Source: Spirochaetaceae bacterium
GTDB lineage: Bacteria; Spirochaetota; Spirochaetia; DSM-2461
Length of the DNA: 64,000 nucleotides
Direction of reading: 5' to 3'
Assembly: GCA_965224705.1 (NCBI GenBank)
Contig: OZ245056.1
Span: 1-64,000, forward strand
The position numbers are program-made. This document shows, one piece after another, positions 24,001-33,000 of this stretch (the first letter of the stretch is position 1; every line of letters begins with the position of its first letter).

Positions 24001-27000
24001 CAGGGTTTCACTCAGTTTCATCAGGAGTTCCTGCAAACCTGAACCCGTATGGGCCGATACCATCAATCCTGTTCTGTAGCACATTCTCAGTCTGTTTATA
24101 TCTTCAGGATTCAAGGTATCAGTTTTATTGAAAACAAGCAAGTGAGGTGTGTTTCCGGCTCCCAGTTCTTCCAGAACACTTTCAGTTACCTTGATATGCT
24201 GATCAAGTTCAGGACTTCCAGCATCAACAACATGCAGGATTACATCGGCCAGAGTGGCCTCTTCCAGAGTGGAACGAAAGGCATCAATGAGATCGTGAGG
24301 GAGTTTCCTTATGAAACCAACGGTATCGGTCAGCAGGATTTCCCTCCCTCCTGTCATTTCCATGCGTCTGGTGGTGGGATCCAGGGTAGCGAAGAGCTTG
24401 TTCCTGACATAGACATTCGAACCGCAGATGGCATTGAGCAGGCTTGACTTGCCCGCATTCGTATAACCAACCAGTGAAACCGAGGGGATGGGTTTATCCA
24501 TGCGTTTCCTGCGGCGTACTTCCCTCTGCTCCCTCAGTTTAATCAATTTGCGTTTCAATTGGGCGATTTTATCAAGAACCAGACGGCGGTCGGTTTCCAA
24601 CTGTGTTTCACCCTTACCCCGGTTGCCTCTGGATCCTCCACGCTGACGTGACAAATGAGTCCAGGCTCGAGTAAGGCGGGGTAGACTGTATTGCATTCGT
24701 GCCAGGGCAACCTGCAGAACAGCCTCCCTGGTCAGGGCCCTGTCTGCGAAGATATCAAGAATCACTTCCCGGCGGTCAATAACCGCTGTATTCCATTCTT
24801 TTTCGAGGTTCCGCTGCTGGGCCGGTGACAAATCTGCATCAAAAACAACAAGATCAATGTGTTCAGCATGCAGACTGCGAGCTATTTCATCAACCTTCCC
24901 CTTCCCCAACAGCCATCGCGGATGGGGTTCCCTTAGATTTATGACAAGACTGACAGCCGTTTTGATTCCAAGAGATCGGACAAGGCCTGTCAGTTCATCG
25001 ACATGAGCCACGGCCTCCTGTCTGCTTTCTGTCTTTTCCATTATCCCGATGAGCAGTGCCTGTTCACACATCCGGGACATTGGAACCCTTCCATTCAGTT
25101 CAGCAGGAATGCTATGCACTCTCAGTCTCAAGTGTATGGGGAACTCTGCTTACAAGCTCCTGTATTTCATCACTGATCCGGCGGTAGAAGTTGAATTTCC
25201 CTTCCCCACCTACAAAGTCTTTGGAGGAAATTCGGCATTGTTTCTTATACTGGATGCCGTCCGCCATCTGACTCCGACAGGAACTGCCCGTACAGGGAAA
25301 CTGTATGCTGAGCCGCCGATTATTCACTGGAACAGTACCAGGTATTCCCCATAGCCTTCAGCTTCCATTTTATCTTTTGGAACGAATCTCATGGATGCCG
25401 AATTGATGCAATAGCGTAATCCGCCTTCTTCCCGGGGGCCATCATTAAAAACATGGCCTAAGTGAGAATCGGCATTTTTGCTTCGAACCTCGGTCCTCAC
25501 CGAAAAAAGTTTTCTATCTGTCTTACTGACGAGGAAGTTAATATCAATAGGCCGGGTGAATGATGGCCACCCGGTCCCTGAGTCATATTTATCCGTCGAA
25601 GAAAACAAGGGCTCACCTGAGATGATATCGACATAAATCCCATCCTCATGGTTATCCCAGTATTCACCGGTAAAAGCCCGTTCCGTACCATCTTCCTGAG
25701 TCACCCTGTACTGAAGATCAGTTAGCTGAGATCTCAGCTCCCTGTCGGTTGGTTTTTTATTCATTTTCCATCTCTCATTCTCCCAGACAGATGTCAGATA
25801 TCCTTTTCTATTCGAACCTTCGTAATAGGCATAGTATCGTTCAGGATTCTTCCTGTAGAAATCCTGATGGTATTCTTCGGCCTCATAAAATGGCGATAAC
25901 GGCAGTATCTCCGTTACAATTTCTTTGTCAAACCTTCCAGTTGCAGACAGCCTTTGTCGGGATTCTTCTGCCAGAAGCTTCTCAGCCTGACTGGAGAAAA
26001 ACACAGCTGTCTGATACTGTTGGCCCCTATCGTAAAACTGTCCATACCGGTCCGTTGGATCAATATTTCGCCAAAAAACATCCAGTAATTCCTTATAGGA
26101 AATTATCTCATCGTCATAACTGACTCTTACTGCTTCGTAATGCCCTGTACCGCCATTAACCACCTGTTCATAGGTTGGATCTTTTACCTTCCCTCCTGTG
26201 TAACCGCTCACAACAGATTTAACTCCCCGCAGAGATTCAAAAGGAGGTTCAAGGCACCAGAAGCACCCACCAGCAAAAACTGCTTCCTGCACCTCTGCTG
26301 ACAGAACTTGAATTGAGCATAATCCAGATACAGCAGCAAATAACAATGCCGAATACTTTTTCATATAACATCCTCCCAGGAGTCTGTCGGACTTACGCCT
26401 CACGGCTCGAAGTCTTAAAGTTCGACAGACTCCCAGGAGCCTGTCGGACCTGCGCCTCACGGCTCGATTTTTGCCCTTCCCTCCAGAAGCAAGCCTCCTG
26501 TCTGATTCTTCCGAGCCGCCTTCGTTTGTTTTTGTCACCTTAAAGCCCGACAGACTCCTGAAATGTTTCGGACTTCAAGCTGACTGAATACACTCATGTA
26601 CACAATCATTCTGACGAAAAACTCCATTTATTGCAAACCCTCAACGGACGCGTTTCCCTGAGAACTGTCCGGGAGAATCTAACAGAGACTGCTTATTTCA
26701 GGCCTTTTTCACCACTATCCTCCACCCGTCTGGTATCCGGGTAACAGAGAAGACCTCATGGCCTTCCAGTTCCATGGATTTCGGCACATTGGCAGCACTC
26801 TCACCATTATCCACAATGAGGGCGAGTACTTGTCCTTTCTCCATTGTTTCAATTTCCAGTTTACTCTTCACAAATGTATAGGGACAAACATCCCCCGACA
26901 GGTTTATTTCACGATCATATTCCATCTGAAGCCTGCTTCACCGCTCTACAGGGTATTTTTCATCATTGCTCCATTCTATCCAACTGCCGTCGTACAGAGC

Positions 27001-30000: not shown

Positions 30001-33000
30001 ATGCACCATCTCGGTATCATTGGCCAGGCGAATATCTTCCAGAGACATGCGAGCCGGTGATTCCGGGTGACTGTGATACACTGCAACAAGGCTGAGACCG
30101 TCATTGCGGGCTGTTTTCATCGCTGTGAATTGTTCCTCTGGGTCCATTGTAAAATGTTCAGGAGATGCATCGGTATTGGTCAGAGGAAGAATCTTCACAG
30201 CCTTCCTGCTGCCATCATCCCCGATTTCACCTGCAAGATATCCACATGCTTCATTGGGCATCTCATTCCGTGCCTGCTGGCCTATGGCCTTGAGAATTTC
30301 TGGCGGTACATTGAGGTTTCTCATTGCCTTACTTCCCCTTCGGGAACTTTCAGTGTACAGACCTCCTGTTGATATTCCACCAGTTCATCGGGGAGTAAAC
30401 CGCCTTGAGTCATGGGCAGTGCCCACTGAGTTCTTTTAACCGGGACTGTCCGAAAATCCATGGTGAAAGCGTCAAAAGTAAGGATGCGGTCAGTGAGCAG
30501 TTCTCCTGTACCAATGAGGTACTTCAGAGCTTCGGCAGCCTGAATTGTTCCAAGAATGCCGGCAATCGCTCCCAGGACACCGGCCTCCGAGCAGGATGGA
30601 ACAGCATCAGGCGGCGGCGGCTGACGGTACACACAGCGGTAGGATGCAGAGCCGGGAACATGGGTGAGTGTTTGACCCCTGAAGCGAAGAATTCCGCCCT
30701 GGTTAAATGCCTTTCCTTCGAGAATACAGGCATCATTCACCAGGAACTTGGAAGGAAAATTATCTGTCCCCTCCAGTATGAAGTCGTAATCCCGAATCAA
30801 ATCCCGGACATTGGAGGCATCTATACGGCAGGGATAAGTTTTCACGCTGACATCAGGATTCAGGGATTCCAATGTTGCTCTGGCTGAGTCCACCTTTCGT
30901 CTGCCAACATCAGTTGTATGATGGAGAATTTGCCGCTGAAGATTGGACAGTTCAACGACATCGGCATCAACAATCCCAATAGTCCCGATGCCGGCAGCTG
31001 CCAGATAGGTTGCTATGGGAGAGCCCAGTCCTCCTGCTCCAATAACCAGGACCCGGCTGTCAAGGAGTTTTTTCTGTCCCACGCCTCCCACATCCTTGAG
31101 AAGTATGTGTCTGCTGTATCGTTCAATTTGTTCATTTGTAAAACTCATAGTTTTGTCTCCTGGAATTGATAGTTCTACTCAAGAGCCTGTTTGAAATCAT
31201 CAATTAGATCGGAAACGGCCTCCAAACCAACAGAAACTCGAATAAGATCATCCGATACTCCAGCCTCTTCCTGAGCCGCCTTTGTCTGTTCCCGGTGAAT
31301 TGTAGATTCGAGATGCAGGGCCAGTGTCCGGGAGTCTCCAAGATTGGTTTGAACTCTGACAAGCCTCAGCCGTCTGAGAGCATTGAAGGCTCTTTCGCGG
31401 CTTCCTGCCCGAAATGTCAACAGACCGCCCCAGAGTCCTCCAAAATACTTTGACGCACGCTCATGCCAGGGGGATGAAGTCAATCCAATCTGGGAGACTT
31501 CAGGAATATCCGGTCGATCTTCCAGATACCTTGCCAGGGCCAGGGCATTTGAGCTGTGACGATTCATGCGGAGTTCAAGGGTATCTGCTCCCAACAGGGC
31601 AATGTAGGCATCGAAGGGAGAAAGGGCTCCGCCAAGATTCTGCCGGGAAACTTTTTTCATATAGACCAGGAAGGCCATATCAGAGCCTGTCAGCTTTACC
31701 ATATTTCTGATGGCAGTACCGGGGAATTTCTTCCACTCATAAACTCCTGTATCGGTAACACAACCCGATAAAACAGTTCCGTTTCCTGTGAGAAATTTTG
31801 TTCCAGACTGAACCGTCAGGGATACTCCATGATTTCCGGCCTCCAGCATGACAGGAGTCACCAGAGTGGTGTCCAGTACCAGAGGAAGCTGGGCTTCTCT
31901 GGCCAGGGAAGCCCAGGCATCAATATCAGGGACATCCATTCGAGGATTCCCCAACGCTTCAAGAAACAGAAATCTAGTTTTTGATGACAGAGCTTCTTTG
32001 ACACCGGAAAAATCGTCAGGATCCACATAGTGAACAGCAACTCCAGAACGTACGACCGTGTTGTCGAAACAGGATCGAGTTCCTCCGAAAAGGCTTGTGG
32101 AGGCAATGATTTCCTCCCCTGATTCTACCAGAGCTGTAAAAAGTGCAGTGATTCCGGCCATACCGGTTGAATAGACAGCCGATCCCCTGGCCCCATCTTC
32201 CATGGCCGTCCATCGACGTTCCAGAGTCGTGATGGTCGGATTGGAAAGCCGACCGTAAACATGGCCAGCCGTCCGACCGGCAAAAATATCTTCCAATTCG
32301 TCCGGACCCTCAGAGGAAAATGCCGCAGACGCCATAATGGGCATAACGGATGCACCATTCCAATCCTTTGAGTTTAATCCGGCATGCAATGCACGTGTAG
32401 CGAATTCCATGAACTCATTCCATCCTCAAACCGTTCCCTCCACCCATAAAGTAGAGAAATTCCAAAACATCGCCTTCAGTTACATGGAGTTTGTCAAAGT
32501 CCGCCCTTTCCAGAATCTCTCCATTGTGCTGGACAGAAACCATATCGGGATCTGGAACCTCTTTCAGGGCCAGGAGTTCTTTGATGGTGAGTTTATCCAT
32601 GGCCAGTGACTCTCTGCTTCCATTGATTTCTATGGTCATTGCATCCTCCATTACTCTCTTGTACTGCTTTTTCCTAAACCATACTTAATAAACTGAATTA
32701 GTCAAGTATTAAATCATTGAAGAAAGGATTTTTTTATAATGAGTCTGGAATCCAGGAGTCGGTCGAACTTTAAGGTGACAAAAACAAACGAGGCGGCTCG
32801 GAAGAAGCAAGCAGGAGGCCTGCTTCTGGAGGGAAGGGCAAAAACTGATCCGTGAGGCGTAAGTCCGACAGACTCCCAGGAGTCTGTCGGACTTTGAGAC
32901 TTCGAGGCGATTTTTGATGTTTTTTTTCCGATACAAGGCGGCAAAAGCGGAGCGTAGCTGGGCTACGTGAGCATTTTGGCAACGCCGTAGCGGGAAAAAA

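Follow-up and report, generated by a model that had tools for sequence, protein, structure and literature searches.

The thiocarboxylate pathway of methionine synthesis in Wolinella succinogenes comprises HcyS, HcyD, HcyF, MetY and Sir. It corresponds to operon class 4e of Iyer et al. 2006 (PMC1779556), with which the operon analyzed here shares a ThiS protein with a C-terminal extension, a JAB protease, an E1 enzyme without a rhodanese domain, a SirA/TusA protein and an O-acetylhomoserine sulfhydrylase. However, our operon has no sulfite reductase, APS reductase, ATP sulfurylase or sulfate ABC transporter, and a propeller protein, a YeeE transporter and an exported rhodanese are found in their place. 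In the mycobacterial CysO/CysM/MoeZR/Mec+ system, a thiocarboxylated carrier, a JAB protein and an E1 likewise feed an amino-acid sulfhydrylase, although there the rhodanese domain is fused within MoeZR and cytoplasmic, the product is cysteine and YeeE is absent (PMC3227635). The MoeZR rhodanese domain uses thiosulfate in vitro, which the authors judge not to be the physiological source (PMC3227635).

As regards sulfur import, the TsuA/TsuB (YeeE/YeeD) systems of E. coli and Spirochaeta thermophila resemble our locus in having a full-length YeeE with three relay cysteines and an outer arginine, followed by a TusA-family protein; the two exported Cys-bearing partners present in our operon are not mentioned for TsuA/TsuB in the accessible parts of those reports (PMC7449682, PMC11073785). 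The SoxY(Z)-SoxT1A-Rhd442/TusA system of Hyphomicrobium denitrificans combines a periplasmic Cys carrier, a YeeE-like channel and a cytoplasmic sulfurtransferase and, going by the available portion of its description, passes sulfur from SoxY through SoxT1A as a cargo other than thiosulfate (PMC11582611). That import is dissimilatory, whereas the operon described here is assimilatory, its carrier candidate is a YVTN-like propeller ending in F/Y-A-C-F rather than SoxY, its loader would be a rhodanese rather than SoxXA/SoxB, and no sox or shdr genes were found in it. The cargo of YeeE-family proteins varies, being thiosulfate for TsuA, something else for SoxT1A and zero-valent sulfur for YedE1E2.

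Layout of the operon

The window, a 64,000-nucleotide stretch at the start of contig OZ245056.1 of a Spirochaetaceae bacterium (genome G000, 95.2% complete), contains eight minus-strand ORFs running from 32639 to 26698, with neighbors overlapping or lying 1-26 nt apart. The survey's finding of an eight-gene operon was upheld by an ORF and Pfam check, in which all eight genes proved real, intact and ordered as claimed (5′ to 3′: ThiS, MetY, ThiF, JAB, propeller, YeeE, rhodanese, TusA). The features are as follows:

32780..33045, strand ".": dispersed repeat
32678..32705, minus strand: sigma-70-like promoter candidate, TTGACT-16-TATGGT
32415..32639, minus strand: ThiS/HcyS-like sulfur carrier, 74 aa (Pfam ThiS)
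31175..32410, minus strand: MetY-like PLP enzyme, carrier-linked clade (Cys_Met_Meta_PP, E 1e-97)
30321..31148, minus strand: ThiF/HcyF-like E1 adenylyltransferase (Pfam ThiF, E 9e-78)
29908..30324, minus strand: JAB/HcyD-like metalloprotease (Prok-JAB, E 1e-22)
28916..29911, minus strand: exported YVTN/YncE-like beta-propeller, candidate periplasmic sulfur carrier (no Pfam family)
27851..28906, minus strand: full-length YeeE/YedE-family transporter (Sulf_transp, E 1e-66)
26938..27849, minus strand: exported tandem-domain rhodanese (two Rhodanese stretches, E 4e-34)
26698..26925, minus strand: TusA/SirA-like cytoplasmic carrier (Pfam TusA, E 3e-19)

It was also confirmed that the order is identical in G029 and G030, the G029 version having an additional leaderless rhodanese ahead of TusA, and that the module is present in 3 of the 38 genomes of the family. 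The operon is best read as two modules, a carrier module formed by the first four genes and an uptake module formed by the last four; the uptake module is apparently undescribed, and the carrier-protein route to methionine is already known.

The promoter scan returned 4 sites versus 6.1 expected in shuffles, and promoter and terminator scans were both at chance level; since the site count was not above that of the shuffles, what backs the promoter candidate is its position upstream of thiS. The dispersed repeat, which lies upstream of the operon and has 138 genome hits of at least 100 bp, is probably not part of the system, and a related repeat is found downstream, at about 26370-26540. Contigs from RNA libraries cannot show transcription, and neither their gaps at 27860-27990 nor the low shares seen in X2-X4 count as evidence.

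Carrier module and sulfur genes of the genome

The ThiS-like carrier, preceded by GGAGGA immediately ahead of its ATG at 32639, ends in MGGG-NGLRME (Gly66-Gly68, then the tail NGLRME), in agreement with the diglycine and C-terminal tail noted previously, and MGGG plus a variable tail is present in 15/15 ThiS proteins of related spirochaete loci. It is the sole ThiS-family gene detected in G000, and the operon's E1 (motifs GAGGLG and SNLQRQ, Cys186) is likewise the only one detected. As this E1 has no rhodanese domain, a persulfide donor is required. The JAB protein has a complete JAMM motif (Glu25, His84-Ser-His86, Ser94-x-x-Asp97). The operon MetY has its PLP lysine within SGTKF, a Gln where T. 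maritima has Arg270, and no PDPSYHG insert; the Gln and the missing insert are shared with PDB 3ri6, which we take to be the Wolinella enzyme. In a quick-search tree of 48 rows (a second tree was of the same kind), it grouped with the ThiS/ThiF-linked clade (SH-aLRT 99), separate from the classical MetY of G000, and it scored 353.6 against TIGR01326 (cut-off 495.1), below the cut-off that the other G000 MetY exceeds with 587.4. The insert is missing from every ThiS/ThiF-adjacent MetY copy. Gln in place of Arg270, in contrast, is not found throughout the carrier-linked clade and was dropped as its general marker.

Neither ThiG, MoaC nor SelD was found in G000 as a target for the carrier. A thiamine role was rejected, the lone ThiG-profile hit reading as a PdxS-like protein (named by eye), and a molybdopterin role is unlikely, with neither MoaC nor a second ThiS/MoaD in G000. 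The first four genes form a Wolinella-type thiocarboxylate module with homocysteine as its probable product. If the steps follow those of the homologous Wolinella pathway, JAB would cut back the ThiS tail so that the glycine is exposed and ThiF would adenylate the trimmed carrier, which the TusA persulfide would turn into a thiocarboxylate; the operon MetY would then transfer its sulfur to O-acylhomoserine, giving homocysteine for methylation by MetH. MetA is present in G000, as are, in keeping with a caveat raised earlier, CysK and a classical MetY.

The genome had been said to contain no sulfite reductase, and this was borne out: a NIR_SIR profile search of G000 found none (the control was positive in 11/14 genomes), and queries with two Sir proteins and a single AsrC-like sequence returned just the TusA domain and ferredoxin-level hits. 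The class 4e supply, sulfite reductase plus sulfate assimilation, was not found in G000, which does carry CysD/CysN and APS reductase, correcting the earlier account. However, the absence had been taken to point to charging from thiosulfate, and this argument was abandoned once the family baseline was known, since 37 of the 38 family genomes have no sulfite reductase and one has it. The enzyme is also present in two module-bearing spirochaete genomes, G167 and G450.

Uptake module and a proposed sulfur relay

The propeller had been described as being of unknown kind, which holds insofar as it belongs to no Pfam family, but its hydrophobic N-terminal leader and invariant C-terminal cysteine had been overlooked. 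Its tail, GQGFACF, has a pLDDT <50 (read as flexible) and bears Cys330, the only cysteine of the mature protein. ACF, alone or with one further residue, ends 47/51 propeller representatives of <=400 aa; in an alignment with identities down to 17%, whose rows were chosen partly for the tail, A-C-F make up three of only seven invariant columns, and the tail cysteine is the sole one of the mature part in 60/61 rows. In spirochaete loci picked by YeeE, the propeller lies immediately upstream of the transporter in 43/46, the remaining three being at contig ends, and all 43 propellers have the ACF ending. Small, soluble and with a single cysteine that can be tested, it is a candidate delivery protein whose position relative to the transporter is the same in over 40 genomes, and its terminal cysteine probably hands sulfur to YeeE.

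The rhodanese also has a hydrophobic leader, as do 42/45 CQ-x-G-x-R rhodaneses, and so would work outside the membrane; both export calls come from a hydropathy heuristic. Its single cysteine, Cys262, lies in an HCQTGVR loop. In YeeE, Cys26, Cys95, Cys293 and Arg214 are invariant across 39 aligned members, for which NF052577 is the best family model, and the three cysteines and the arginine of S. thermophila YeeE are retained; like TsuA, it is a single chain of the 330-350 aa size class. TusA carries Cys14 within CPYTFV.

On the basis of gene content and linkage, catalytic residues, leaders and sequence conservation, we propose, with a probability of about one half, a periplasmic relay in which sulfane sulfur moves from the rhodanese by way of the propeller's Cys arm and YeeE to TusA, supplying the thiocarboxylate route to homocysteine, with thiosulfate or polysulfide as the outside donor. 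The exported rhodanese would accept a sulfane sulfur on Cys262, either from polysulfide or from thiosulfate, in which case sulfite would stay behind in the periplasm, and would presumably then pass it to Cys330 of the propeller. The flexible tail would act as a swinging arm, perhaps SoxY-like in action (the SoxY arm is GGCGG), delivering sulfur to YeeE's outer cavity (Arg214, Cys293), from where it would pass via Cys293, Cys95 and Cys26 to form the TusA Cys14 persulfide. Passage from SoxY through SoxT1A sets a precedent, although direct Cys-to-Cys transfer across YeeE is doubted in the available part of the same report, given a spacing of about 7 Å (PMC11582611). A SirA protein replacing rhodanese in such operons has also been described (PMC1779556). 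If true, the relay would account for the use of inorganic sulfur by spirochaetes without sulfite reductase.

The import of intact thiosulfate by TsuA/YeeE, as previously claimed, is an assumption. It would be followed by cleavage inside by TusA, as YeeD does, with the persulfide charging ThiS, the propeller serving as a thiosulfate-binding or accessory protein and sulfite perhaps being consumed by cysteate synthase, encoded in the sulfonolipid operon. Such a sink is present in G000, where cysDN lies beside cysteate synthase and away from our operon. The best solved structure matching YeeE is S. thermophila TsuA (E 9e-40), whose relay residues are all retained; YeeD forms a persulfide from thiosulfate, according to the accessible text (PMC11073785); and in T. 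maritima, thiosulfate induces yeeE 42.6-fold (PMC9431562). The invariant basic residues Arg160 and Arg163 of the propeller and 14 leaderless CR-type rhodaneses in or beside related loci also fit. However, YeeE misses both TsuA cut-offs (192.8 versus 400 for NF052577; 137.3 versus 645 for NF041049), TusA has CPYT instead of the YeeD-type CPxP and reaches 22.7 of 147.5 bits against the YeeD model NF041048, no leaderless rhodanese occurs in the window operon, and the YeeE-like SoxT1A is reported, in the part of the paper available, not to carry thiosulfate (PMC11582611). Since this explanation also leaves the exported rhodanese of nearly every locus and the redox-type Cys tail unaccounted for, it is considered rather unlikely.

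That the module serves to export sulfane sulfur or to detoxify it, or has a selenium function in the manner of YedE/YedF, is very improbable. In favor of this, the direction of transport cannot be read from sequence, TusA has YedF as its best NCBIfam match, with 42 bits against a cut-off of 79, and there is a weak match of YeeE to YedE/FdhT models. Yet no SelD above cut-off and no tRNA-Sec among 46 tRNA genes were found in G000, so that, with the YedE/YedF models below cut-off, selenium is not supported; the genes linked to uptake loci are biosynthetic, together with one for a CymR-like Rrf2 regulator; and YedE1E2 is described, in the accessible portion of its report, as an importer and not an exporter of zero-valent sulfur (PMC10812762).

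Outside spirochaetes, distantly related propellers with PCCG, YCCT, RCCG or PCGF Cys tails adjoin YeeE, and some YeeE-neighbor propellers have no Cys tail (L193, L212, L205, L208, L217). The CCG-tailed propeller of L219 matched ours with E 0.002 over 78 aa, with no convincing pairwise similarity. Foldseek and Atlas returned nothing beyond generic YVTN/YncE propellers, and fused forms were absent among 8000 long candidates, which is weak evidence; P0018, which starts as propeller and ends as rhodanese, was taken as a probable deletion rather than a fusion. We tentatively suggest that propellers with a C-terminal Cys arm (F/Y-A-C-F in spirochaetes, PCCG/CCT/PCGF elsewhere) could be undescribed periplasmic sulfur carriers delivering to one YeeE subfamily. 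Together with the exported rhodanese they might remove sulfane sulfur from extracellular thiosulfate or polysulfide, the sulfur staying protein-bound all the way to homocysteine or cysteine, so that neither sulfite reduction nor free sulfide would be involved.

Linkage of the two modules across genomes

What stood of the thiosulfate-fed methionine synthesis proposed by the survey is a Wolinella-type module without sulfite reductase joined to YeeE uptake; the donor and the dedication to methionine, as stated, did not. In the 46 spirochaete YeeE loci (where one 'Sir' count was a weak ferredoxin-like hit), rhodanese and TusA each occur in 41, a ThiS, ThiF or JAB gene is nearby in only 17 and MetY in only 10. 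The other 29, some on short contigs, have no carrier genes nearby, which speaks against the relay. The propeller-YeeE-rhodanese-TusA set stands alone in G250, 99% complete and without E1, and five loci (L146, L164, L170, L189, L197) bear ThiS, ThiF and JAB with MetY not nearby. Because of such stand-alone uptake modules and MetY-less carrier loci, methionine is not the fixed output of the pair.

These observations also favor mere co-regulation, in which uptake gives HS- to CysK and classical MetY, and ThiS is either charged from cysteine by IscS/SufS via TusA or has a product other than homocysteine. The uptake module adjoins cysK in L147, L148 and L163, the halves lie apart in G442 (L038 and L159), and IscS/NifS- and SufS-like enzymes able in principle to load TusA are present in G000. 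A CoA-disulfide-reductase-rhodanese (G000 2833133-2834833, named by eye) could free sulfide. Against this, the two halves share a single TusA in the window, their genes are intermingled in various orders at L153, L164, L166 and L197, the E1 needs a persulfide donor, and the tie of YeeE to ThiS-E1, JAB and cysteine synthases recurs independently in other phyla (Methylomirabilis, Salinibacter and a Thermotogae bin). Co-regulation without sulfur transfer is thus regarded as improbable, and the relay remains the preferred reading.

The carrier module also occurs with neither YeeE nor Sir nearby (G026/L241, L037, L045, L108) and with an encapsulin cysteine desulfurase, and the canonical Wolinella-type form is found in family member G024. 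The ThiS/E1/JAB/TusA unit thus appears as a plug-in for at least three sulfur supplies: sulfite reductase, the encapsulin cysteine desulfurase and the YeeE module.

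The operon and its surroundings

Eight intact genes occupy the minus strand with overlaps or gaps of at most 26 nt, and the Pfam names of seven of them agree with those of the survey's finding. The gene order it reported was confirmed in two further members of the family (G030 and G029), as was the presence of the module in three of 38 family genomes. With a narrow first profile, the module was found in 3 of 401 sampled genomes of the phylum, and the relatives belong to Spirochaetota.

32639 to 26698 (−): operon with ThiS, MetY, ThiF (E1) and JAB (carrier module), then propeller, YeeE, rhodanese and TusA (uptake module)
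28916–29911 (−): the propeller
~32780–33045 and ~26370–26540: dispersed repeat bracketing the operon; the upstream stretch has 138 genome matches of at least 100 bp
25324–26538 (−): MsrA-MsrB fusion immediately downstream; the listed ORF begins within the repeat, the true start probably being a later Met ahead of a leader-like stretch

The operon sequence is supported, since one contig from run X5, possibly the source sample, spans 26463–32820 with zero differences, and contigs from X1, an RNA library labelled mollusc metagenome, span 28467–32661, 27990–28485 and 26669–27860; these contigs, whose ends fall near the operon edges, cannot show transcription. A CymR-like Rrf2 gene is located 5′ of thiS in relatives and, in the host genome (G000), at 2850850–2851263 instead.

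The Cys-tailed propeller and the uptake module

The main interest of the locus lies in the propeller, whose predicted fold (pLDDT 84.9) is that of a YVTN/YncE-like beta-propeller; residues 326–331 form a disordered tail, and a hydropathy heuristic indicates an N-terminal leader. ACF, or ACF plus one residue, forms the C-terminus of 47 of 51 propeller-profile proteins of at most 400 aa, and of the four exceptions, three match the profile over its beginning only, whereas the fourth ends in a rhodanese piece. Among 61 aligned propellers, partly chosen for the tail, Ala-Cys-Phe accounts for three of the seven invariant columns, and the tail Cys is the sole Cys of the mature part in 60. An independent test started from YeeE and took the best 80 of 163 loci, 46 of them spirochaete. 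The propeller was directly upstream of YeeE in 43 of these 46, all 43 ending in ACF, and the three loci without it begin at a contig end; rhodanese and TusA were each present in 41 (raw counts, in which kin are not independent). The 325-aa protein P0018 (two database members) joins the propeller's first 231 residues to the C-terminal half of a rhodanese, and is probably a deletion across yeeE.

YeeE keeps Cys26, Cys95, Cys293 and Arg214, counterparts of the residues that are essential in S. thermophila YeeE (PMC7449682). The rhodanese has a single Cys, Cys262 in HCQTGVR, and, by hydropathy heuristic only, a hydrophobic leader (12-residue mean 2.87, versus at most 1.6 for the operon's cytoplasmic proteins). 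By the same heuristic, a leader was found on 42 of 45 related CQ-x-G-x-R rhodanese ORFs (one locus counted twice), and 14 of 15 CR-type rhodaneses were leaderless. In L029, a related locus, YeeE and rhodanese form one ORF with the leader kept between them; since the C-terminus of YeeE is inside (PMC7449682), this rhodanese too would end up outside. Thus placed by its leader, the operon rhodanese would be unable to charge ThiS directly. A second, leaderless rhodanese (CRSGxR or CRTASR loop) is found in or opposite the uptake module in L147, L148, L156, L158, L177, L179–L182, L184, L188 and L190.

A lone invariant Cys on a flexible tail fits a carrier arm, given that the protein is exported and that its gene keeps a fixed place ahead of that for a Cys-relay transporter and next to that for an exported sulfurtransferase. 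We give roughly even odds (about 0.5) to a periplasmic sulfur relay in which exported rhodanese, propeller Cys, YeeE and TusA would feed ThiS and MetY, for which thiosulfate may serve as outside donor of sulfane sulfur. Such a relay would resemble SoxY/SoxT in its working, although the carrier candidate here is the propeller and not SoxY, whose arm motif is GGCGG. Thiosulfate was excluded as cargo of SoxT1A and SoxY-bound sulfane sulfur proposed as source, direct Cys-to-Cys hops being doubted in favour of HS− or a short polysulfide (PMC11582611), and YedE1E2 is described as importing zero-valent sulfur (PMC10812762).

The survey's finding proposed thiosulfate-fed thiocarboxylate methionine synthesis. 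That interpretation is supported in part: the carrier module stands and is Wolinella-like, but import of intact thiosulfate by YeeE now appears rather unlikely. The uptake module would resemble TsuA/TsuB in its working, yet its YeeE scores under both TsuA cut-offs, its TusA carries CPYT where YeeD has CPxP (PMC11073785), and its rhodanese bears a leader. Thiosulfate as the outside donor is in keeping with the nearest solved rhodaneses, which are thiosulfate sulfurtransferases, although thiosulfate turnover in vitro need not be physiological (PMC3227635).

The carrier module, MetY and links beyond spirochaetes

The window ThiS ends in MGGG-NGLRME, and MGGG plus a differing tail was verified in 15 of 15 ThiS of related spirochaete loci; in L026, ThiS and ThiF are fused via MGGG. 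These tails and this fusion imply that a protease is needed, and the JAB protein has a complete JAMM motif. ThiS is joined by the GG motif to the N-terminus of the E1 in L026 (8308–9318), L199 (1477–2625) and L219 (1291–2790), each close to a JAB gene whose product may release the carrier from its activator. No rhodanese domain is present in the operon ThiF, whose nucleotide-binding motifs and Cys186 are conserved. In the description of this operon class by Iyer et al. (PMC1779556), the E1 never has a rhodanese, SirA is always present, and genes for sulfite reductase and sulfate use are usual companions; neither YeeE nor thiosulfate is mentioned in that text, and its additional file (an operon list) could hold a YeeE-linked case. 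No description of the propeller family or of a YeeE-linked thiocarboxylate operon was found in the open-access literature, a scope outside which most subscription literature lies, and the available portions of PMC13047784, PMC13188914, PMC9431562 and PMC7483736 hold nothing on this system.

The operon would work like the Wolinella pathway (HcyS/HcyD/HcyF), although it is not a full member, since it is without Sir. In Wolinella, MetY works with a thiocarboxylated carrier, and ordinary MetY is limited to bisulfide by Arg270 (PMC8191291). The operon MetY shares with PDB 3ri6 both a Gln at that position and the absence of the PDPSYHG insert; the insert is missing in all ThiS/ThiF-adjacent copies, among which Gln is not general. 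A quick tree of 48 rows places the operon MetY within a 40-row clade of mostly ThiS/ThiF-adjacent enzymes (SH-aLRT 99), the classical MetY of G000 branching apart. Judged by homology, homocysteine is the likeliest product in G000, given the carrier-linked MetY, the genes for MetA and a MetH-sized methyltransferase, the window ThiS and E1 as the only ones found, and no match in the genome for ThiG, MoaC or SelD. A module for export or selenium is very improbable.

The 46 spirochaete YeeE loci include 17 with a ThiS, ThiF or JAB gene, 10 with MetY and nine with all four; in G250 (one contig, 99% complete), propeller, YeeE, rhodanese and TusA stand alone, without a close E1 or NIR_SIR. These figures bear on the possibility that the uptake and carrier modules are only co-regulated, which we consider unlikely. 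Beyond spirochaetes, L219 and L214 carry CysK, JAB and a ThiS-E1-rhodanese fusion, then a Cys-tailed propeller module, and Methylomirabilis loci combine YeeE with a ThiS-E1 fusion, two TusA, CysK, JAB and often Sir. Several phyla have therefore either acquired or retained the link between YeeE and thiocarboxylate machinery. Of the 34 non-spirochaete loci among the best 80, six have a propeller with a twin-arginine-like leader and a PCCG, CCT or RCCG tail, two have one with a PCGF tail, and five have one without a Cys tail. Twin-arginine-type propellers with Cys-rich tails directly precede exported rhodanese and YeeE in L183 (4745–5977), L200 (2850–4040), L206, L209 (2100–3272), L214 and L219 (2821–4047), the rhodanese ending in STCW in L183, L214 and L219.

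Sulfite reductase and other sulfur supplies

NIR_SIR had no match in G000, so that the absence of sulfite reductase reported by the survey holds; as an argument for thiosulfate it loses force, since 37 of 38 family genomes lack it, the exception (G024) bearing a canonical Sir operon. Thus, G000 needs outside reduced sulfur, whose form this absence does not indicate. Of 28 spirochaete genomes that carry the uptake module, most of them incomplete bins, 2 (G167 and G450) had NIR_SIR, as had 7 of 10 genomes from outside the spirochaetes in which related YeeE loci occur. G000 can make sulfite, since it has CysD and CysN, encoded in one operon with cysteate synthase (TIGR03844 458.8, cut-off 324.9) and a serine-palmitoyltransferase-like gene at 2384262–2389824 of contig C1 (L118), and an APS reductase that is encoded apart from them and is extended at its N-terminus (C1 1663217–1664254, L119). 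From their annotation, these genes probably serve capnine-type sulfonolipid synthesis in a spirochaete.

The sulfur supply varies among the relatives of this ThiF: of 105 ThiF loci after duplicate removal, 26 had Sir, 20 encapsulin, 16 ACF propeller and YeeE, 8 YeeE only, 3 Sir and YeeE, and 32 none of these within the available DNA. In the encapsulin type, a cysteine desulfurase is also present in the locus scanned, and these loci could represent a second source of sulfur that is as yet undescribed. In this Bacteroidales variant, which has no Sir, ThiS, ThiF, JAB, DsrE2 and TusA lie beside a cargo-type cysteine desulfurase and an encapsulin shell of family 2B (L039, 8707–15104); it recurs in L040, L041, L044, L047, L050, L051 and L073, the 20 ThiF loci being of this kind.

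By eye, a tetrapyrrole/cobalamin cluster was recognised at 4208–14259 (+) of the window, with a siroheme-synthase-like N-terminus at 8445–9878, although siroheme sulfite reductase is absent. Also by eye, a molybdenum hydroxylase gene cluster was identified at C1 1665518–1680401 (L119), MoaC, MoaD and a second E1 not being found in the genome, which suggests either cofactor scavenging or an assembly gap. At C1 2833133–2834833, a flavoprotein named by eye as CoA-disulfide reductase-type, with a matched rhodanese domain, is possibly a persulfide reductase.
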